From: a virus
Lineage: Duplodnaviria; Heunggongvirae; Uroviricota; Caudoviricetes
DNA length: 8,224 nt
IMG/VR virus record: IMGVR_UViG_2648501186_000018
Span: 1-8,224 of that record
Direction: 5' to 3' (one strand)
Shown: one piece after another, positions 1 through 8,224 of the stretch
Layout: the number at the start of each line of letters is the position of its first letter
Position numbering within the stretch: the stretch's first letter is position 1
The notes under the pieces: model-generated
What the model saw: the letters and a program-made list of their open reading frames with translations, nothing else
What the model was told of the DNA's origin: nothing
The model's database searches: none
Translations under genes and position numbers: made by a program

Positions 1-837
1 TTACGCCTTCTTTATATCCTCCATAATTTCAGAGTGGGACATATTTGGGACATTATCACCAAAAATGTCGTCTATTTTCCTCGCATGCTCTGTCAAATGA
101 TTAGGCGCAAGGTGAGCATACCTACGAACCATTTCTATGGACTCCCATCCGCCCATTTCCTGAAGCACTGATAATGGGACGCCTGACTGAATCAGCCAGC
201 TTGCCCAGGTGTGTCTGAGGTCATGGAAACGGAAATCTTCAATTCCTGCACGACGACAAGCTGATAGCCATGATGTCTTGCTGTCGATGCGCATCTTCCT
301 GACCGCAGGCGTTGATGTTCCATCTGCTCGCTTAGCCGCCTTGGTATGTACAAACACCCATTTGTGATGCTTGCCTATTTGATCACGCAACACTTTACAG
401 GCGGTATCGTTCAGCGCCACACCAATGGCGCGGTTTGATTTGCTCTCTTCTGGATTCACCCAGGCAACTCGTCGCTGCATGTCGATTTGTTGCCATTCCA
501 GATTTATGATGTTCGACTTTCTCAGACCAGTTGCCAGCGCAAACTTGACGACAGATTTCAGTGGTTCGGGGCACTCATCAATAAGGCGTTTTGCTTCCTC
601 CTTTTCCAGCCATCTGACTCGCTTGTTTCTGACCGCTGGTATCTTGATGACAGGCGCTTTTTCCAGCCACTTCCAGTCGCGTTCTGCAGCACGGAGAATG
701 GCCTTTATCATGGCAAGATGCTTTGCCTTTGTCTGAGTTGATACTGGCTTTGGTTCATAAACAGGCAGTTCTTTACCTTTCCTGATGGCGGCCTGAACTT
801 TCTGTTTCCATATTTCTTTCGTCTTTCTGTTATGCAT
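1..837 (-). CDS. int: Phage tyrosine integrase (DLP12 IntD-like), 5'-truncated. The homologous frame stays open up to 1026 but contains no ATG/GTG/TTG there; the first ATG at 837 gives 278 aa.
   Basis: The translation carries the tyrosine-recombinase C-terminal catalytic region (…[12 protein letters not shown]…[15 protein letters not shown]), with the HxxR box and the catalytic Tyr. Reading the same frame upstream of 837 gives …[55 protein letters not shown], which continues the integrase homology. The frame is closed by TGA at 1027-1029. The ~55 N-terminal residues (arm-binding domain) expected for this family are absent. Confidence 0.85.
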
Positions 838-1026
838 TCTGCTTACAGCAGAGTAAATCTTTGCCTCCGAGATATCTTTAAGCCTTATACCCTCAAAATG
901 TTCAAGCCAGAACTCAATCCGGCTTTTATCTGAATCGAGAGATTTTTTATCAGCTTTTTCCTCAAGCCATCTTAGGCAGGCCTCTTCAAAAGTGACATCA
1001 GGTACGCTGCAGGATAATGTCCGGTA

Positions 1027-1407
1027 TCATGCTGCCACCTTCTGCTCAGTGGCTTTCTGTTTCAGGAATCCAAGAGCTTTCACTGCTTCGGCCTGTGTCA
1101 GTTCTGACGATGCGCGAATGTCGCGGCGAAATATCTGGGAACAGAGCGGCAATAAGTCGTCATCCCATGTTTTATCCAGGGCGATCAGCAGAGTGTTAAT
1201 CTCCTGCATGGTTTCATCGTTAATGGCTTTTTTGCTGGCCCCGTGGCGTTGCAAATGATCGATGCATAGCGATTCAAACAGGTGCTGGGGCAGGCCTTTT
1301 TCCATGTCGTCTGCCAGTTCTGCCTCTTTCTCTTCACGGGCGATCTGCTGGTAGTAACGCGCCCAGCTCTGAGCCTCAAGACGATCCTGAATGTAATAAG
1401 CGTTCAT
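1027..1407 (-). CDS. Chimeric gam'-'bet ORF (126 aa). The first ~60 aa match lambda Gam from its internal GamS start; the last ~65 aa match the C-terminus of lambda Bet. Probable in-frame deletion product.
   Basis: N-terminus [60 protein letters not shown] matches the lambda Gam sequence as I recall it. C-terminus …[64 protein letters not shown] matches the end of lambda Bet as recalled. A strong Shine-Dalgarno AGGAG lies 7 nt upstream of the ATG at 1407. Both matches are from memory and need alignment to confirm. Confidence 0.75.
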
Positions 1408-1482
1408 GGCTGAACTCCTGAAAATGGCTGTGAAAATATCGCCCGCGAAATGCCAGGCTGATTAGGAAAACAGGAAAGGGGA

Positions 1483-1689
1483 TTAGCGATTCAGGCCGTT
1501 ACCGCGTCCGTCGAGAAAAACTTCCACGAGCAAATCACGGGTATAAGTGCGCTCGATGCCGCGATGCAGATAAAGCCGTCCGCGTAAATTAGCTGATGCA
1601 GTCCAGGTACCATCTTTGTGTTTGACCAGCATTCCTGGCATGACCGCACCTCGATTAACGGTCTGCGTTCCGTAATGTTGATGAACCAT
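1483..1689 (-). CDS. kil: Kil-like small protein (68 aa), similar to Rac KilR, a host FtsZ/cell-division inhibitor. The start is assigned to the ATG at 1689; the ORF track extends the frame to a TTG at 1893.
   Basis: An AGGAG Shine-Dalgarno sits 5 nt upstream of the ATG at 1687-1689. The product [68 protein letters not shown] aligns with my recollection of Rac KilR (shared PG…(V/L)xH…GT(W/Y)xASAN…R(K/R)LY…T(F/Y)xxD…(K/E)VFL). It lies immediately upstream of gam in the PL operon, which is the lambda kil position. The KilR match is from memory and needs confirmation. Confidence 0.55.
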
Positions 1690-1910
1690 AAAAACTCCTG
1701 CCCGTAAGCTGGGCTGCTGAACATATAGAGACTTCTGCGCGTATTCAGGCGGTGGATGGCCGCCGGTTGTCATAACTAAGCCGCCTCGTTGAAGCGACTG
1801 AGGTATAAAGTGTTGTGTTGATTTCAGCTGGTCACACCGACGTTCACGCGTCCGTTTCACCCCTCGCACTCCCCGAAGCCTGCTGAAATTCAAACTGCGG
1901 ATCTAAGCGG

Positions 1911-1962
1911 TCATCGCAACGGTGAAACAGGTGGTTACCGTATCGTTGTGTCGTTGCGATGA
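1911..1962 (-). repeat. Perfect 11-bp inverted repeat (TCATCGCAACG … CGTTGCGATGA) with a 30-nt spacer, at the 5' end of the predicted PL transcript.
   Basis: Read directly: 1911-1921 tcatcgcaacg and 1952-1962 cgttgcgatga are exact reverse complements. The spacer contains a second TCGTTG copy that could pair alternatively with the first arm. Confidence 0.7.
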
Positions 1963-1964
1963 AT

Positions 1965-2040
1965 TTATTTAAAACTATAGTTGTTTTATCGTCAACAACA
2001 AAAGTTGTTTTATCGGTTGTTTTAAATATAACTGGTTGTA
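1965..2040 (-). promoter_or_regulatory. PL promoter with OL operators (leftward early promoter).
   Basis: On the minus strand: -35 TTGACG (plus 1990-1995), 17-bp spacer, -10 TTAAAT (plus 1967-1972). The segment GTTGTTGACGATAAAACAACTATAGTTTTAAAT is near-identical to the PR segment GTTGTTGACTAAAAACAACCATAGTTTTAAT at 3514-3544. Operator-like elements: palindrome AACAAC-aaaa-GTTGTT at 1994-2009; GTTGTTTTATCG repeated at 1980-1991 and 2004-2015; further GTTGT copies at 2017-2021 and 2035-2039. Confidence 0.6.
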
Positions 2041-2132
2041 TTTAGGATGGATTTATTTTGTGACTTGCATCGCATAGCGATAACTGAAGTGAGGTGTGGT
2101 GGTTTTTTGGACGGTATGAGTTATGAGGGGGA

Positions 2133-2161
2133 GGAAAAGAAAACCCGGCGCGGTTGCCGGG
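2133..2161 (-). terminator. Rho-independent terminator ending the cI-lipoprotein transcript.
   Basis: GC stem cccggc (2144-2149) / gccggg (2156-2161) with loop gcggtt. On the minus strand it is followed by TTTTCTTTTCC, 9 nt downstream of the lipoprotein stop. Confidence 0.7.
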
Positions 2162-2169
2162 TATGATTA

Positions 2170-2550
2170 TCAGTCAGCCCAACCTGATTTCGAGTTTATT
2201 TGGGTTTCTGACATTGTGTATTTCTTAATCGTGTCATCGTTAAAAAGAATAGTAAGTTCTTTTTTCGTACCGTTCGTTCCGTTATGGAATAATCCATAGA
2301 ATGGAATAAAAGTGGTGCCATTAACTTTTACTTTTGCAAAGGCGTACTTCCAGATCTCCTTTCCACTGTCAGTATATGAAACAGCATCAGGAGAACCAAA
2401 GTAAGATTTAACCTCATTCTTGGTTGTTTTACCTTCCTGAAGTTTAGACTGGACACTAATTTCAGTTTCATTTTTGAGTTGCTGGTTGCCTGAAGAAGCA
2501 CACCCAGCCAATACAGATGCCATCATGGCAGCGATTAGGATTTTTCTCAT
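2170..2550 (-). CDS. Outer-membrane-type lipoprotein (126 aa) of unknown function, encoded immediately downstream of cI in the position lambda uses for rexAB.
   Basis: Signal peptide MRKILIAAMMASVLAGC with lipobox LAGC, and Ala at +2 after the Cys. An RBS GGAAAC precedes the start. The mature part shows a BamE/SmpA-OmlA-like motif pattern (G.T..EV...FG.PD…W.Y.F…LTILFN), which is my inference only. It is flanked by its own terminator and separated from cI by a 229-bp AT-rich spacer. Confidence 0.8.
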   Translation of the reverse strand: MRKILIAAMMASVLAGCASSGNQQLKNETEISVQSKLQEGKTTKNEVKSYFGSPDAVSYTDSGKEIWKYAFAKVKVNGTTFIPFYGLFHNGTNGTKKELTILFNDDTIKKYTMSETQINSKSGWAD

Positions 2551-2779
2551 TTTATGTTTCCATTCATTATAATCAGAAACATCTTAACATAATGATTCGA
2601 AATAAAAACCGCTACGAGATAGGGAGACATTTTGCTGACAGTAGCAACAAATCTCAGCTAACAACGAGAATATTTACTGAAATATGCAAACAGATTTGGC
2701 GTTCTTATAGAGAATTTAGTGCAATATCTAATCCGAGTGGTATAAACCTTAACCTTCGCTCCCTTAAGTCGTAGATAAA

Positions 2780-3469
2780 TTAACCATGCTTCCTGTACGT
2801 CTGCGGCATGCTTCCAATGACCTTACCGAATATGAACACCCGGTTCATCTCGTCTTTCTCGATCGGGTCCCACGGCGAGTAGCTCTTGTTATCAGAGATA
2901 ACCAGCAGCTTATCCTTCATCATTTGAAGACGTTTTACATGGGCAGTGTCGTCGTACAGAAACGCATAGATGCCATCACCGTCGAAAGATTTAACAGTGA
3001 TATCAACGAACAGCAGGTCACCTGGTTCGATCGTCCCTGACATGCTGTCACCTCGCACGTTAATGATGCGGATATTTTCCGCCTTCCTGCCATCGAACAT
3101 GTGACGAGCATCGTCAAACGAGTACTCAACCGAGCGTAGAACTTCTACAAACTCACGGTTGATTACACCTGGCCCGGCACTGACTTCTATATCAAGAACG
3201 TCAATTTTGAAGTATTTGGAATGGCTGACAGTTGATTGTATTGGTTGCACTGTACTGTCTGACATATTTCCAACGCCAGAAGATAACCATTCTGCGCGTA
3301 CACCCAAAGCGTTCGCGATCTCCACGATTTTAGTTGTTTGGTTAGCTTTCCCTGTTTCGATTTTCTGAATAGCAGCCTGGCTAACCCCGACCAAATCCCC
3401 AAGCGCCTTTTGTGTAAGGCCTCGCGCTAATCTGGCTTCTTTAAGTCTTTCTGAGAGTGTTGTTTTCAT
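2780..3469 (-). CDS. cI: CI-type prophage repressor: N-terminal XRE-family HTH plus C-terminal LexA-like S24 autopeptidase domain.
   Basis: HTH region LTQKALGDLVGVSQAAIQKIE. Ala-Gly cleavage site in EVSAGPG. Catalytic Ser in VRGDSM and Lys in HVKRL. It is divergent from cro across an operator region. The mRNA is probably leaderless or nearly so, since the PRM -10 lies about 7 nt upstream of the ATG. Confidence 0.95.
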   Translation of the reverse strand: MKTTLSERLKEARLARGLTQKALGDLVGVSQAAIQKIETGKANQTTKIVEIANALGVRAEWLSSGVGNMSDSTVQPIQSTVSHSKYFKIDVLDIEVSAGPGVINREFVEVLRSVEYSFDDARHMFDGRKAENIRIINVRGDSMSGTIEPGDLLFVDITVKSFDGDGIYAFLYDDTAHVKRLQMMKDKLLVISDNKSYSPWDPIEKDEMNRVFIFGKVIGSMPQTYRKHG

Positions 3470-3475
3470 AGATCA

Positions 3476-3546
3476 AATGTACAACCAAGGTTTTATTTCA
3501 TCAAACGAAAATGGTTGTTGACTAAAAACAACCATAGTTTTAATCT
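3476..3546. promoter_or_regulatory. OR operator region with divergent promoters PRM (leftward, cI) and PR (rightward, cro).
   Basis: PR: -35 TTGACT at 3518-3523, 17-bp spacer, -10 TAATCT at 3541-3546. PRM on the minus strand: -35 TTGATG (plus 3499-3504), 17-bp spacer, -10 TACATT (plus 3476-3481). Perfect 9-bp inverted repeat ATGGTTGTT-N7-AACAACCAT at 3511-3535 overlaps the PR -35. An additional ACAACCA half-site at 3481-3487 overlaps the PRM -10. Confidence 0.7.
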
Positions 3547-3573
3547 TGATTCGGATTAACCACGGAGGTTGTT

Positions 3574-3804
3574 ATGAACCCAGCAATCAAAACAGCGATC
3601 AATATCGTTGGTTCACAAAAGAAACTAGGCGATGCCTGCGAAGTTTCACAGCAGGCCGTCTATAAGTGGCTTCACAACAAAGCAAAGGTATCCCCTGAAC
3701 ATGTCGGCAGCATTGTTACGGCTACTGGTGGAGTTGTGAAGGCATACCAGATTCGCCCGGATCTTCCGAAGTTGTTTCCACACACCGAAAAGAACGCAGC
3801 TTAA
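3574..3804 (+). CDS. cro: Cro-like HTH regulator of the YdaS type (76 aa).
   Basis: First gene downstream of PR and divergent from cI. RBS GGAGG lies 6 nt upstream of the ATG. The family-like pattern AIxxxGSQxxLxxxxxVSQQAVxxW…GGV…RPDL matches the YdaS/Cro family as I recall it. Confidence 0.85.
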   Translation: MNPAIKTAINIVGSQKKLGDACEVSQQAVYKWLHNKAKVSPEHVGSIVTATGGVVKAYQIRPDLPKLFPHTEKNAA

Positions 3805-3816
3805 ATTTCCATTTCA

Positions 3817-3829
3817 CGCTCTTTAACAA
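3817..3829 (+). promoter_or_regulatory. boxA-like element (CGCTCTTTAACAA) in the cro-O spacer, at the nutR position; no convincing boxB hairpin follows.
   Basis: Matches the rrn/lambdoid boxA consensus GCTCTTTAACAA, 13 nt after the cro stop. Downstream there is only an AGTCAATT direct repeat (3847-3854 and 3867-3874), not a GC hairpin. Confidence 0.45.
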
Positions 3830-3873
3830 TAAGCAATCAACTTAACAGTCAATTCAAACTAAAGGAGTCAATT

Positions 3874-5046
3874 ATGCAACCACTTACATACCAACAGACT
3901 AGCGGATTTATTCCGACTGCGGTGATAAATCGTTCTCAAACAAAACAAGCTCCAGGCCACGAAAAAATCCGTGATGCCGTCCGCGCCTGGTCGGCTGTAG
4001 ATAATCAGGATGTCGTTGCCGCACTCATTGTGAATGAGTATCGGGAGCAGGGCGACGGCACCATCGATTTCCCTGATGATGTCAGCCGTGCACGCCAGAA
4101 GCTGTTCCGCTTCCTCGATAACAAATTCGATTCTGAAAAATACCGAAATAACGTGCGTGAACTGACCCCGGCAATTCTGGCGGTACTACCGCTGGAATAT
4201 CGCGGTTACCTGGTTGAGCAGGATAGCTTCATGACTCGGTTGGCCGGATTAACACAGCACCAGCTTCTGGTCTTCCTGGCTGTCATGCGCAAAACATATG
4301 GCTTTAATAAAAGACTGGATTGGGTGAGCAACGAGCAACTTTCCGAATTGACCGGGATATTGCCGCACAAGTGTTCTGCTGCAAAAAGCGTTCTGGTAAA
4401 GCGTGGGATTCTTATTCAGAGCGGGCGAAATATCGGCATTAATAATGTGGTCAGTGAATGGTCAACATTACCCGAATCAGGTAAGAAAAATAAAGTTTAC
4501 CTGAAAGAGGTAAATTTACCTGAATCAGGTAAGAAAAGTTTACCCAAATCAGGTAAAGGCGTTTACCCGAATCAGGTAAACACAAAAGACAAACTAACAA
4601 AAGACAATATAAAACCTTTTTCGTCCGAGAATTCTGGCGAATCCTCTGACCAGCCAGAAAACGACCTTCCTGTGGTGAAACCGGATGCTGCAATTCAGAG
4701 TGGCAGCAAGTGGGGGACAGCAGAAGACCTGACCGCCGCAGAGTGGATGTTTGACATGGTGAAGACCATCGCGCCATCAGCCAGAAAACCGAATTTTGCA
4801 GGGTGGGCTAACGATATCCGCCTGATGCGTGAACGTGACGGACGTAACCACCGCGACATGTGCGTGCTGTTCCGCTGGGCATGCCAGGACAACTTCTGGT
4901 CCGGTAACGTGCTGAGTCCGGCCAAACTCCGCGACAAGTGGACCCAGCTCGAAATCAACCGAAACAAGCAACAGGCTGGCGTGACAGCCGGCAAACCAAA
5001 ACTCGACCTGACGAACACTGACTGGATTTACGGGGTGGATTTATGA
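3874..5046 (+). CDS. O: Replication initiator, lambda O-like (390 aa), with the origin embedded in the gene.
   Basis: The N-terminal domain shares the lambda O signature (LTQHQLLVFLAVMRKTYGFNKRLDWVSNEQLSELTGILPHKCSAAKSVLVKRGILIQ versus lambda O LTKRQFKVLLAILRKTYGWNKPMDRITDSQLSEITKLP…). RBS AAGGAG precedes the start. The gene overlaps P by ATGA and contains the iterons listed separately. Confidence 0.9.
   Translation: MQPLTYQQTSGFIPTAVINRSQTKQAPGHEKIRDAVRAWSAVDNQDVVAALIVNEYREQGDGTIDFPDDVSRARQKLFRFLDNKFDSEKYRNNVRELTPAILAVLPLEYRGYLVEQDSFMTRLAGLTQHQLLVFLAVMRKTYGFNKRLDWVSNEQLSELTGILPHKCSAAKSVLVKRGILIQSGRNIGINNVVSEWSTLPESGKKNKVYLKEVNLPESGKKSLPKSGKGVYPNQVNTKDKLTKDNIKPFSSENSGESSDQPENDLPVVKPDAAIQSGSKWGTAEDLTAAEWMFDMVKTIAPSARKPNFAGWANDIRLMRERDGRNHRDMCVLFRWACQDNFWSGNVLSPAKLRDKWTQLEINRNKQQAGVTAGKPKLDLTNTDWIYGVDL
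4468..4579. repeat. Origin iterons: five 17-bp palindromic repeats TTACC-N7-GGTAA inside the O gene, followed by an A/T-rich stretch (4580-4622).
   Basis: Copies at 4468-4484, 4497-4513 (degenerate), 4516-4532, 4540-4556 and 4563-4579. They are mirrored in the protein as repeated PESGKK/PKSGK motifs. This is the lambda ori architecture, with different iteron sequence. Confidence 0.85.
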
Positions 5047-5744
5047 AAAACATCGCCGCACAGATGGTTAACTTTGACCGTGAGCAGATGCGCCGGATCG
5101 CCAACAATATGCCGGAACAGTACGACGAAAAGCCGCAGGTACAGCAGGTAGCGCAGATCATCAACGGTGTGTTCAGCCAGTTACTGGCAACTTTCCCGGC
5201 GAGCCTGGCTAACCGTGACCAGAATGAACTGAACGAAATCCGCCGCCAGTGGGTTCTGGCTTTCCGGGAAAACGGGATCACCACAATGGAACAGGTTAAC
5301 GCTGGAATGCGCGTAGCCCGTCGGCAGAATCGACCATTCCTGCCATCACCCGGGCAGTTTGTCGCCTGGTGCCGGGAAGAAGCATCTGTTAACGCCGGGC
5401 TGCCAAACGTCAGCGAGCTGGTTGATATGGTTTACGAGTATTGCCGGAAGCGTGGCCTGTATCCGGATGCAGAGTCTTATCCGTGGAAATCGAACGCGCA
5501 TTACTGGTTGGTTACCAACTTGTACCAGAACATGCGGGCCAATGCGCTGGCTGACGCGGAATTACGGCGCAAGGCTGCCGATGAACTGACCTGTATGACA
5601 GCGCGAATTAACCGTGGTGAGACGATACCTGAACCAGTAAAACAACTTCCTGTTATGGGCGGTAGACCTCTAAATCGTGCACAGGCTCTGGCGAAGATCG
5701 CAGAAATTAAAGCTAAGTTCGGACTGAAAGGAGCAAGTGTATGA
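5043..5744 (+). CDS. P: Replication protein P (DnaB helicase loader), nearly identical to lambda P.
   Basis: The 233-aa product MKNIAAQMVNFDREQMRRIANNMPEQYDEKPQVQQVAQIINGV…AKFGLKGASV matches lambda P as recalled, with only a few substitutions. The start overlaps the O stop (ATGA) and the stop overlaps the ren start. Confidence 0.95.
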   Translation: MKNIAAQMVNFDREQMRRIANNMPEQYDEKPQVQQVAQIINGVFSQLLATFPASLANRDQNELNEIRRQWVLAFRENGITTMEQVNAGMRVARRQNRPFLPSPGQFVAWCREEASVNAGLPNVSELVDMVYEYCRKRGLYPDAESYPWKSNAHYWLVTNLYQNMRANALADAELRRKAADELTCMTARINRGETIPEPVKQLPVMGGRPLNRAQALAKIAEIKAKFGLKGASV

Positions 5745-6043
5745 CGGGCAAAGAGGCAATTATTCATTACCTGGGGACGCATAAGAGCTTCTGTGCACAG
5801 GACGTTGCCGCGGTAACAGGCGCAACCGTAACCAGCATAAATCAGGCTGCGGCTAAAATGGCGCGGGCAGGAATCCTGGTCGTTGATGGTAAGGTCTGGC
5901 GAACGGTGTATTACCGGTTCGCTACCAGAGAAGAATGGGAAGGAAAGGTGAGCACGAATCTGATTTTTAAGGAGTGTCGCCAGAGTGCCGCGATGAAACG
6001 GGTATTGAGGGTATATAAAAGAACATCAATGGGAACACAATGA
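5741..6043 (+). CDS. ren: Ren (lambda ren-like; protects against Rex exclusion), 100 aa.
   Basis: MTGKEAIIHYLGTHKSFCAQDVAAVTGATVTSINQAAAKMARAGILVVDGKVWRTVYYRFATREEWEGK… matches lambda Ren as recalled. The C-terminal tail differs slightly. The start overlaps the P stop by ATGA. Confidence 0.9.
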   Translation: MTGKEAIIHYLGTHKSFCAQDVAAVTGATVTSINQAAAKMARAGILVVDGKVWRTVYYRFATREEWEGKVSTNLIFKECRQSAAMKRVLRVYKRTSMGTQ

Positions 6044-6060
6044 TGAAACAGGTGAGTTGA

Positions 6061-6095
6061 GTTCAAACTGTAGTACAATTCTCTCCAGTTTGAAC
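6061..6095 (+). repeat. Perfect 10-bp inverted repeat GTTCAAACTG-N15-CAGTTTGAAC in the emrE 5' leader.
   Basis: Read directly; it lies between the ren stop (6043) and the emrE RBS. No T-tract follows, so it is not a classical terminator. Confidence 0.6.
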
Positions 6096-6110
6096 AGGAA
6101 AGAATATGCT

Positions 6111-6443
6111 ATGAACCCTTATATTTATCTTGGTGGTGCAATACTTGCAGAGGTCATTGGTACAGCCTTAATGAAGTTTTCAGAAGGTTTTACACGGTTA
6201 TGGCCATCTGTTGGTACAATTATTTGTTATTGTGCATCATTCTGGTTATTAGCTCAGACGCTGGCTTATATTCCTACAGGGATTGCTTATGCTATCTGGT
6301 CAGGAGTCGGTATTGTCCTGATTAGCTTACTGTCATGGGGATTTTTCGGCCAACGGCTGGACCTGCCAGCCATTATAGGCATGATGTTGATTTGTGCCGG
6401 TGTGTTGATTATTAATTTATTGTCACGAAGCACACCACATTAA
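6111..6443 (+). CDS. emrE: EmrE small multidrug resistance (SMR) efflux transporter, 110 aa.
   Basis: The product MNPYIYLGGAILAEVIGT.LMKFSEGFTRLWPSVGTIICYCASFWLLAQTLAYIPTGIAYAIWSGVGIVLISLLSWGFFGQRLDLPAIIGMMLICAGVLIINLLSRSTPH matches E. coli EmrE as recalled, with four TM-like hydrophobic segments. The ORF-track start at 6057 is a TTG extension; the real start is the ATG at 6111, preceded by AGGAAAG. Confidence 0.95.
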   Translation: MNPYIYLGGAILAEVIGTALMKFSEGFTRLWPSVGTIICYCASFWLLAQTLAYIPTGIAYAIWSGVGIVLISLLSWGFFGQRLDLPAIIGMMLICAGVLIINLLSRSTPH

Positions 6444-6473
6444 AATAATTTGTTTCTAAACGACTAAAATATG

Positions 6474-6512
6474 GAGGCTCTTATATTTATATGAGCCTCG
6501 TTTTATGCTTTT
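6474..6512 (+). terminator. Rho-independent terminator downstream of emrE.
   Basis: Stem gaggctc (6474-6480) / gagcctc (6493-6499) with a 12-nt AT loop, followed by TTTTATGCTTTTT. Confidence 0.65.
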
Positions 6513-6697
6513 TGTTAATGTCTTTATTTTTTATGTATTCTTTTGTGCTTTCAAGATTATGGCGTAAGAAAATTGCAATACGATTATTGTTGTATATTCA
6601 AGATAATGTGACCTTAATTGTCTTTTTAAATAAAAAATAAACAAAAATTATATCCCACCACTAAGGTTTATAAAAGCATACGTTAGCAGGTGTCACC

Positions 6698-8224
6698 ATG
6701 AAAAAAGCCATAGCATATATGCGATTTTCATCACCAGGTCAGATGTCTGGCGACTCATTAAACCGACAGAGAAGACTTATTGCTGAATGGTTAAAGGTAA
6801 ATAGTGATTATTATCTTGATACCATAACATATGAAGATTTAGGATTAAGTGCATTCAAAGGAAAGCATGCACAATCAGGAGCTTTTTCGGAATTTTTAGA
6901 TGCTATAGAGCATGGTTATATATTGCCAGGAACTACATTGTTAGTTGAAAGTCTGGACAGACTTTCAAGAGAAAAAGTCGGTGAAGCGATTGAACGTCTG
7001 AAATTGATTTTGAATCACGGTATTGATGTTATAACTCTTTGCGACAATACAGTCTATAATATTGGCTCTTTGAATGAGCCATATTCATTAATAAAAGCCA
7101 TACTTATAGCACAAAGGGCAAATGAAGAAAGCGAGATAAAGTCAAGTCGGGTTAAATTATCATGGAAGAAAAAACGGCAGGATGCACTGGAATCAGGTAC
7201 GATTATGACGGCGTCTTGTCCGAGATGGCTCTCCTTAGATGACAAAAGAACGGCTTTTGTTCCAGACCCCGACAGGGTGAAAACTATTGAGCTAATTTTT
7301 AAACTCAGGATGGAAAGGCGCTCATTGAATGCAATAGCCAAGTATTTAAATGATCATGCTGTAAAGAATTTCTCAGGAAAAGAAAGTGCATGGGGACCTT
7401 CTGTAATTGAAAAATTATTAGCGAATAAAGCTCTGATAGGTATTTGCGTACCTTCATATCGTGCAAGAGGGAAAGGGATAAGTGAAATCGCTGGCTATTA
7501 TCCCAGAGTCATATCAGATGATTTGTTTTACGCTGTACAGGAAATTCGGTTGGCACCTTTTGGTATTAGCAATAGTAGCAAGAATCCTATGCTAATAAAT
7601 CTACTTCGAACAGTTATGAAGTGTGAGGCTTGTGGTAATACCATGATTGTTCATGCGGTATCTGGAAGTTTGCATGGCTATTATGTTTGTCCGATGAGAA
7701 GATTACATCGATGTGACAGGCCATCAATAAAAAGAGATTTGGTTGATTATAATATCATTAATGAATTGCTTTTTAATTGTAGCAAAATTCAACCAGTTGA
7801 AAACAAGAAAGATGCTAATGAAACTTTAGAGTTAAAAATTATTGAGCTTCAGATGAAAATTAATAATTTAATCGTTGCATTGTCTGTCGCGCCTGAAGTT
7901 ACCGCTATAGCAGAGAAAATAAGACTATTAGATAAGGAATTACGAAGGGCTTCGGTATCATTGAAAACTTTGAAGAGTAAAGGTGTAAATTCATTCAGTG
8001 ATTTTTATGCTATTGACTTAACCAGTAAAAATGGACGAGAGTTATGCCGTACACTTGCCTATAAAACATTCGAAAAAATCATAATTAATACGGATAATAA
8101 AACCTGTGATATCTATTTTATGAATGGCATTGTTTTTAAACACTATCCTTTAATGAAAGTAATATCCGCCCAGCAGGCGATAAGTGCTCTCAAATATATG
8201 GTTGATGGTGAGATTTATTTCTAA
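6698..8224 (+). CDS. ybcK: Large serine recombinase, YbcK-like (508 aa): resolvase-type catalytic domain, recombinase domain, zinc-ribbon and coiled-coil.
   Basis: N-terminal catalytic motif AYMRFSSPGQ…R with the Ser nucleophile. Cys-rich zinc-ribbon CEACGN…CPMRRLHRC. Coiled-coil segment LELKIIELQMKINNLIVAL. RBS AGGTG lies 6 nt upstream. It follows emrE as in K-12 DLP12 (from memory). Confidence 0.9.
   Translation: MKKAIAYMRFSSPGQMSGDSLNRQRRLIAEWLKVNSDYYLDTITYEDLGLSAFKGKHAQSGAFSEFLDAIEHGYILPGTTLLVESLDRLSREKVGEAIERLKLILNHGIDVITLCDNTVYNIGSLNEPYSLIKAILIAQRANEESEIKSSRVKLSWKKKRQDALESGTIMTASCPRWLSLDDKRTAFVPDPDRVKTIELIFKLRMERRSLNAIAKYLNDHAVKNFSGKESAWGPSVIEKLLANKALIGICVPSYRARGKGISEIAGYYPRVISDDLFYAVQEIRLAPFGISNSSKNPMLINLLRTVMKCEACGNTMIVHAVSGSLHGYYVCPMRRLHRCDRPSIKRDLVDYNIINELLFNCSKIQPVENKKDANETLELKIIELQMKINNLIVALSVAPEVTAIAEKIRLLDKELRRASVSLKTLKSKGVNSFSDFYAIDLTSKNGRELCRTLAYKTFEKIIINTDNKTCDIYFMNGIVFKHYPLMKVISAQQAISALKYMVDGEIYF

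Follow-up and report, generated by a model that had tools for sequence, protein, structure and literature searches.

The DNA analysed here, called the window, is the 8,224-nucleotide stretch at positions 1–8,224 of IMG/VR virus record IMGVR_UViG_2648501186_000018 (Caudoviricetes), and the region in question is its AT-rich right-hand part (6044–8224), which carries emrE, ylcJ and ybcK, the last encoding a 508-aa large serine recombinase (LSR). Comparison with phage, prophage and bacterial genomes indicates that this region is quite probably the left half of a ~4.06-kb accessory block, shuffled by recombination, which occupies a variable slot of a DLP12-type prophage and carries an intact LSR. 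The block itself is not new, being the already annotated emrE-ylcJ-ybcK cargo of DLP12-type lambda-like prophages. The features of the region and its left flank are listed below; L002 denotes the reference locus of phage PhiR70_1, where positions 3965–3974 correspond to window 6007–6016, and the fliE-side copy is the second chromosomal form of the cargo described further on.

5741–6043 (+): ren, in which the variable slot has its left boundary; the final ~10 codons (starting at ~6007–6017) go with the emrE cargo
6061–6095 (strand not applicable): near-palindrome of 35 bp, an inverted repeat with 12/13 positions complementary
6111–6443 (+): emrE, small multidrug resistance efflux transporter (Pfam PF00893; NCBIfam SMR_efflux_EmrE)
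6451–8224 and beyond (+): recombinase segment, ylcJ plus ybcK (blastn junction against the fliE-side copy)
6474–6499 (+): GC-stem hairpin GAGGCTC...GAGCCTC with a T-rich run (inverted repeat at L002 4432–4457, 92% complementary)
6491–6640 (+): ylcJ, 49-aa hydrophobic open reading frame (ORF) with a match to the Pfam YlcJ-like family
6698–8224 (+): ybcK, 508-aa LSR (Pfam Resolvase, Recombinase and Zn_ribbon_recom)

Identity of the region

Positions 5700–8224 are 100% identical to Escherichia coli ETEC4073 and 99.9% identical to K-12 MG1655, C600 and other strains, where emrE, ylcJ and ybcK are annotated. The ETEC4073 locus is a defective lambdoid prophage adjoining tRNA-Arg (argU), which is DLP12, and its neighbourhood shows the order intD...emrE-ybcK...nin-quuD-nmpC-essD. 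Past ybcK, the ETEC4073 genes follow as ybcL (interrupted by IS3), ybcM, ybcN-ninE-ybcO-rusA-ylcG-quuD, a porin gene and the lysis genes. A first-pass annotation of the window, made without database searches, had noted the emrE-ybcK pairing of K-12 DLP12, and the MG1655 records, with both genes annotated, bear this out. Its other readings of the letters hold as well: the GC content falls abruptly from 0.509 across O-P-ren (3874–6043) to 0.356 across 6044–8224, emrE and the 508-aa LSR are recovered by NCBIfam and Pfam, the prophage's own integrase is of the tyrosine type (PF00589), and the window ends exactly at the ybcK stop codon.

Insertion sequences strike the block repeatedly. IS3 lies in ybcL of the source strain (L001 17404–18661), ybcK is split by IS2 or an IS3-family element in several strains, and in strain c1-17 (L017) IS1 truncates the block after ylcJ.

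Boundaries of the cargo slot

The AT-rich block of ~4.06 kb comprises emrE, ylcJ and ybcK, followed past the window by ybcL and ybcM, and GC content stays low until just after ybcM. The left edge of the slot had been placed at the ren stop codon; it lies instead at window ~6007–6017, ~27–36 bp inside the ren 3' end and within its last ten codons, where it coincides with the best single GC change point (base 6011, also inside the ren 3' end). The right edge, at L002 8037, lies just before a conserved TTTGATT..AATCAA repeat and also precedes a CCGGAG..CTCCGG inverted repeat upstream of ybcN/ninB. The position of this right-hand repeat is what we take to be that of the lambda tR2 terminator.

In PhiR5_1, PhiR30_1, Perceval and Turner, homology breaks at the same two points (L002 ~3965–3975 and 8037), whatever the cargo. 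For the two phages with different cargo the left break is at L002 3965–3974 (window 6007–6016); PhiR5_1 carries Rha and small ORFs in the slot and PhiR30_1 an acyltransferase and a lipoprotein, and in both the P/ren and nin genes are near-identical to those of the reference. Further relatives have a DNA methyltransferase or PD-lambda-1 there. Comparing relatives with and without the block, as the first-pass annotation had proposed, thus defined insertion boundaries common to all cargoes, and since cargo free of any recombinase uses the same junctions, the outer boundaries are not att sites of YbcK. The description of the region as AT-rich cargo is upheld, as it fills a ren-to-ybcN/ninB slot in which related lambdoid phages carry unrelated accessory genes; the view that it stands where the nin region would be is not, because ybcN-ninE-ybcO-rusA-ylcG-quuD follow intact downstream and the cargo lies before the nin genes without replacing them.

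The slot hosts defence-type cargo elsewhere, including a SIR2_2-domain protein in an Atlantibacter-like metagenomic contig (L019, 4755–6695) and PD-lambda-1 in phage PhiR26_1. PADLOC defence models gave zero matches for all seven block proteins.

Distribution and mosaic structure

Twelve sequenced Escherichia phages have the same DNA after ren, namely PhiR70_1, PhiR68_2, PhiR34_1, PhiR47_2, Turner, Lambda_4C10, 4A7 (two records), 1W, 3W, D2 and Perceval. The order ren-emrE-ylcJ-ybcK was found in 80 of 80 IMG/VR contigs, always in one orientation, and what follows ybcK varies among at least five kinds: ybcL-ybcM (30 contigs), Turner-type cargo, an alpha/beta hydrolase, P22AR-type cargo, or none, ybcK then being followed directly by ybcN (the case of the O157:H7 prophage at icd). 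Every version diverges 66–80 bp past the ybcK stop. The recombinase segment therefore extends minimally ~66 bp past the window end, and in the DLP12 type it reaches window-equivalent position 8533. The downstream ybcLM pair is autoregulated by YbcM (PMC8464067).

The region is matched by 3,698 of 5,426 complete E. coli genomes, and ybcK is present in 1,425 (26%). About 2,260 genomes (~42%) match emrE only (window 6046–6449), at ~92% identity. The locus inspected for this second form, in ST131 strain 751 (L016 6989–9241), has emrE-ybcL-ybcM between fliE and yedF, without ybcK. It is a decayed lambdoid remnant: of ren it has only the final 9 bp, after ybcM it retains the repeat region as far as the start of ybcN, and the 3' end of Q comes next. 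At its junction the sequence passes from the equivalent of L002 4408 to that of L002 6492, with four unmatched bases in between, and the fliE-side form thus lacks 2,083 bp holding ylcJ, ybcK and a spacer. The other emrE-only genomes appear to share this layout, judging from the coordinates and identity of hits sampled at even steps. The L016 remnant adjoins an IS200/IS605 transposase, and LF82 and ETEC4073 each carry both a fliE-side and a phage-borne copy of emrE.

The recombinase segment is present in all phage-borne copies, and none of 50,697 phage records showed emrE-ybcL-ybcM without ybcK. Matches in the plasmid collection were three only, all in chromosome-sized records of 0.39–4.9 Mb. 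The association of emrE with ybcK, previously described as stable, is so within the E. coli lambdoid phages represented by the 80 contigs, but it is not obligatory, given the ~2,260 genomes with emrE and no ybcK and the Atlantibacter and Pantoea relatives of YbcK without emrE. The comparison separates cargo retained by the host (emrE, ybcL, ybcM) from cargo retained by the phage (ybcK).

YbcK as a large serine recombinase

The domains recognised in YbcK are the following:

6698–7180 (+): catalytic domain (PF00239, E 1.5e-18), with Ser11 at 6728–6730
7268–7549 (+): recombinase domain (PF07508)
7601–7768 (+): zinc ribbon (PF13408)
~7799–7978 (+): coiled coil, a helical hairpin in the AlphaFold 2 model (H368–397/H401–427)

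YbcK matches PHROG 95 (phrog_95), annotated as 'integrase', at 2e-119. The catalytic residues R9, S11, Q15, D87, R88 and R91 are invariant across a 22-member alignment reaching ~30% identity, as are C309, C312, C331 and C339 of the zinc ribbon that follows the recombinase domain. A search of the Protein Data Bank with the single YbcK sequence gave zero matches and a family profile was needed; this profile matches the A118 and SPbeta integrases and the catalytic domain of TP901-1, and aligns to the A118 integrase (4kis) across residues 191–475. The AlphaFold model (mean pLDDT 80) comprises a catalytic domain, a long helix E, a recombinase domain, a zinc ribbon and the hairpin 368–427, with the coiled coil embedded in the zinc-ribbon domain, and Foldseek returned full-length matches to the SPbeta, PhiC31, Bxb1 and A118 integrases (E 1e-13 to 1e-18).

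The DLP12-type and Perceval-type ybcK genes differ at 40 synonymous and 13 non-synonymous positions (dS 0.134, dN 0.011, ratio 0.08). Among 25 haplotypes the variable sites are distributed 14/8/38 over the three codon positions, and 24 of the 25 are intact. Residue conservation together with the predicted fold shows that ybcK encodes a complete, selectively maintained LSR of the predicted integrase type, and the protein looks functional by these signs. No published recombination assay of YbcK was found in the literature mentioning ybcK.

YbcK relatives in other genera

A protein search revealed a clade of 505–522-aa proteins, 40–60% identical to YbcK, in Atlantibacter, Yersinia, Pantoea, Erwinia, Kluyvera, Ewingella and Citrobacter; a scan of GTDB species representatives, with patterns that fit close relatives only, returned one relative outside E. 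coli. In Atlantibacter and Pantoea prophages the relatives (42–60% identity) lie between the replication genes and ninB/Q. The context in Atlantibacter is O-P-...-DNA methyltransferase-LSR-DinI-NinB-NinG-Q, that in a related metagenomic contig O-P-...-SIR2-...-LSR-KGG-DinI-NinB-NinG-Q, and that in Pantoea dispersa tyrosine Int...cI-cro-...-ParB-like-LSR-KilA-N-DUF968-Q. The LSRs of Yersinia, Erwinia and Ewingella are found at the prophage end, directly past the tail-fibre and tail-fibre-assembly genes, with host genes within ~1.4 kb (Erwinia) and ~0.6 kb (Ewingella); some family members are thus placed where a true prophage integrase would be. The Kluyvera LSR is near umuC and dinI, and that of Citrobacter koseri has a context resembling a conjugative island. 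As emrE is absent from all these loci, it is the recombinase, and not the emrE-ybcK pair, that is the recurrent resident of the replication-to-nin interval.

In the C. koseri locus (L020 7145–10530) the 50%-identical relative of YbcK is divergent from a gene whose 555-aa product faintly matches Shufflon_N (PilV-like), in an island with TraD and MobA, which hints that some members of the family could serve inversion systems. In the contig L019, the conserved repeat and the first 60 codons of a ninB-like gene are duplicated (8652–8853 and 11632–11832) upstream of the recombinase module; the copies, of ~230 bp, differ by ~15% in DNA and at 2 of 60 residues. This duplication seems to have been left by an unequal exchange in which two phages took part. 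On its account ninB was considered as a targeted attB and rejected, the downstream ninB being complete and the ~15% divergence of the copies fitting recombination between two phages.

Alternative explanations

The block had been suspected of being a nested mobile element, in which case YbcK would be the integrase of a small cassette (ylcJ-ybcK or emrE-ybcK) inserted site-specifically in the ren–ninB region. The clean presence/absence difference of ylcJ-ybcK between the phage and fliE-side forms agrees with such an origin, as do the recurrence of divergent family members in the replication-to-nin interval of three genera with different immediate neighbours, the duplicated repeat and ninB 5' end that immediately precede the recombinase module in L019, and the position of the Erwinia and Ewingella members at the prophage–host junction, like true integrases. 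We nevertheless consider it improbable, since the outer boundaries of the slot are common to recombinase-free cargo, and the ends of the segment are unremarkable. For both the 2,083-bp segment (the phage versus fliE-side difference) and the 1,840-bp one (the minimal shared module), the inverted symmetry at the inner ends was equalled by most shuffled sequences (847 and 994 of 1,000, respectively). Neither a common palindrome architecture near eight family loci nor conserved upstream non-coding DNA across nine loci was found. A mobilised element would be expected in multiple contexts; the 80 contigs and every E. coli genome or phage context fetched show one linkage and one orientation, and solo copies elsewhere were not found. 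The junctions of the ylcJ-ybcK difference are devoid of att features, and loss of the segment from a decaying remnant would account for it just as well. The ~230-bp, ~85%-identical duplication of L019 fits unequal phage recombination, not an exchange by a serine recombinase. Flanking repeats or a target core, sought to the right of the window as had been suggested, yielded no att-like ends, the conserved right-edge repeat being shared with recombinase-free cargo. No cognate attP/attB (~40–50 bp, with dyad symmetry) was recognised near ybcK, although weakly conserved half-sites could escape these tests; with that reservation, it is concluded that YbcK would not have placed the block.

A perfect 13-nt inverted repeat with a 24-nt spacer is present in the ybcK-ybcL spacer (L002 6381–6430, window-equivalent 8423–8472), 199 bp past the ybcK stop; by estimate, ~0.005 such repeats are expected by chance in that stretch. 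It was found only in DLP12-type blocks, in 675 genomes with one copy each. As a candidate attP it was rejected, lying outside the minimal shared module, not occurring in the Perceval, Turner or O157 forms, and having no partner in any of the 675 genomes.

It had also been suggested that the recombinase is domesticated, E. coli keeping ybcK because it serves the host, for instance in programmed inversion or in responding to stress. The gene is indeed intact in the cryptic DLP12 of K-12 and BL21, its overexpression raises and its deletion lowers sabinene tolerance in BL21(DE3) (PMC7181518), and in tables for the LF82 lysogen the recombinase has 6–241 reads versus 0–8 for the neighbouring gene P, if the columns have the meaning assumed here (supplement of PMC9928086). 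This explanation is very improbable all the same. Only 26% of complete genomes have ybcK; it is missing from the remnant that retains emrE-ybcL-ybcM in ~42% of genomes and holds these three genes under purifying selection (ratios 0.03, 0.09 and 0.12), and its conservation is just as strong in phages that are inducible or were obtained as virions (Perceval, 4A7, 1W, 3W, D2 and Turner). In K-12, a Rho-dependent terminator in the ybcK leader silences the gene (PMC4150792), and Hfq binds ybcK in a polyphosphate-dependent manner (PMC10954037); neither an invertible segment nor a repeated partner site was found nearby. Perceval, which is inducible (PMC9928086), also carries canonical tyrosine Int and Xis, and this, together with the loss of ybcK from the host-fixed remnant, points to a phage-serving or selfish role and not to host domestication. 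Hardly credible is the notion of a functionless relic, an integrase gene left over from illegitimate recombination and persisting only through its linkage to emrE: a target site could not be identified, insertion sequences and one premature stop codon occur in some strains, and the adjacent ylcJ looks unconstrained, but dN/dS is 0.08 over a dS of 0.13, third codon positions dominate the variation, nearly all haplotypes (24/25) are intact, and relatives down to ~30% identity show no change at the catalytic and zinc-binding residues.

The reading of the region as part of a recombination-shuffled accessory block with an intact LSR has its own weak points. The fliE-side layout is known by inspection from one genome and is extended from it to the other emrE-only hits, and a single junction at ~90% identity fits deletion of ylcJ-ybcK in the fliE-side form as well as insertion in the phage form. 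The putative enzymatic activity of YbcK is argued from sequence conservation only, no recombination site having been found, and purifying selection would be expected equally of a selfish recombinase. Rho silencing and the binding of Hfq with polyphosphate in K-12 could mean that ybcK is unused DNA in cryptic prophages, and the published sabinene phenotype points to no recombination role.

Proposed origin and significance

According to the accessory-block reading, the block would be mosaic, made up of at least three modules that assort independently, namely emrE, ylcJ-ybcK and the downstream cargo. Recombination in the conserved flanks, homologous or illegitimate, would carry these modules from one phage or prophage to another, as for lambda and DLP12, and the recombinase that they carry would not be what moves them. 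The acquisition of DLP12 DNA by lambda and phi80 through flanking homology was shown experimentally (PMC3945230). YbcK may still catalyse conservative site-specific recombination that benefits the phage, e.g., in auxiliary integration or excision, and its sites would then lie outside what was recognisable here.

A more far-reaching proposal, tentative and on balance rather unlikely, is that the YbcK family represents a distinct lineage of supernumerary LSRs in the lambdoid phages of several enterobacterial genera, kept by purifying selection in the replication-to-nin slot, beside the normal tyrosine Int/Xis, for a second programmed recombination that serves the phage. If so, this recombination could give access to another integration site should the primary attB be taken, or bring about a rearrangement used in phage–phage conflict. 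The block is textbook-annotated E. coli K-12 DNA, and the finding as stated adds nothing new to its annotation; the puzzle is that phages provided with an integrase keep another such gene, of the serine type, which is complete and well conserved, and that ybcK occurs in about one in four complete E. coli genomes. Should a defined att pair exist for YbcK, the enzyme would be a native large serine integrase of E. coli, of interest for phage lysogeny range and genome engineering.

emrE, its flanks and ylcJ

The emrE product scores 238.1 bits against the NCBIfam model NF042984 (SMR_efflux_EmrE; cut-off 226) over residues 1–110 of 110. The gene forms a discrete module of ~404–416 bp (about 6035/6046–6450), delimited as 6046–6449 by megablast and as L002 3993–4408 by blastn against the fliE-side copy, relative to which its dN/dS is 0.03. 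In Perceval, emrE was named a moron and is induced in DMEM (PMC9928086); by the literature it is a lysogen-expressed efflux gene of the moron type, and the copy in the window is putatively the same.

The 6061–6095 palindrome is situated just upstream of the emrE ribosome-binding site and reads GTTCAAACTGTAG-9 nt-CTCCAGTTTGAAC; the fliE-side copy of emrE, which is 92% identical, retains it with a single change. It may serve as an operator, an RNA hairpin or a promoter element. The hairpin at 6474–6499 has the appearance of a terminator of emrE and may act as one; a consensus terminator scan did not include it among the terminator-like sites listed. It overlaps the start codon of ylcJ, whose status as a protein-coding gene is doubtful: ylcJ is annotated as frameshifted in some genomes, and its variable sites (1/4/3 by codon position) show no excess at the third position. 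The promoter scan was at chance level (17 found versus 16.4 expected), and an Rfam search of the block gave a chance match only.

Other features of the window

The remaining part of the window contains the following lambdoid features:

1–837 (-): tyrosine integrase of the intD type (Pfam PF00589, E 6.7e-47), adjoining tRNA-Arg in ETEC4073
lambdoid early region of the window: Gam/Bet remnants (ORF list and family searches)
2780–3469 (-): cI
3574–3804: cro
3874–5046: O
5043–5744: P

The integrase gene is a RefSeq pseudogene in the source strain, its N-terminus being missing. The O gene is a fusion of a ydaT/cII-like 5' part and an O 3' part (Pfam YdaT_toxin at residues 67–143, Phage_rep_O at residues 124–196), the junction corresponding to a 379-bp deletion relative to phage PhiR70_1 (L002 1820–2198), and the replication initiator that it encodes is probably defective. 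A second AT-rich island (window 1900–2780, GC 0.36–0.40) lies between the kil/N side and cI; the 126-aa product of its ORF 2170–2550 (-) resembles a lipoprotein and has a weak BamE-like match, and the island is probably another moron.

Comparison with known systems

The closest counterpart is K-12 DLP12, where emrE-ylcJ-ybcK-ybcL-ybcM (b0543–b0546) agree with the window prophage in genes, order and argU site. The window prophage differs in retaining cI, cro, P and an uninterrupted ren and in its ydaT-O fusion; in the K-12 DLP12 records an IS3-family element splits ren, whereas in the source strain IS3 is in ybcL instead. Perceval (an LF82 prophage, Bievrevirus), 4A7, 1W, 3W, D2 and Turner have ren-emrE-ylcJ-ybcK at the same place, with YbcK proteins 97.4–99.6% identical, and the Perceval protein is annotated as 'Large serine recombinase'. 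Unlike the window prophage, these phages were isolated as virions or are inducible, and Perceval has its own tyrosine Int and Xis; their downstream cargo is an alpha/beta hydrolase or hypothetical genes, in contrast to ybcL-ybcM in DLP12.

YbcK has the domain order and catalytic Ser/Arg set of the large serine integrases (A118/LI, SPbeta SprA, PhiC31, Bxb1 and TP901-1), but its sequence identity to them is just 14–20%, it has no recognisable attP or directionality factor, and it is not the integration module of the phage, being encoded mid-genome in the early-right region. The block as a whole resembles the morons of lambdoid phages (in the ren-nin interval and the b region), which are likewise AT-rich, sharply bounded, interchangeable among relatives and dispensable for lytic growth; compared with these, a site-specific recombinase is an unusual content for a moron.

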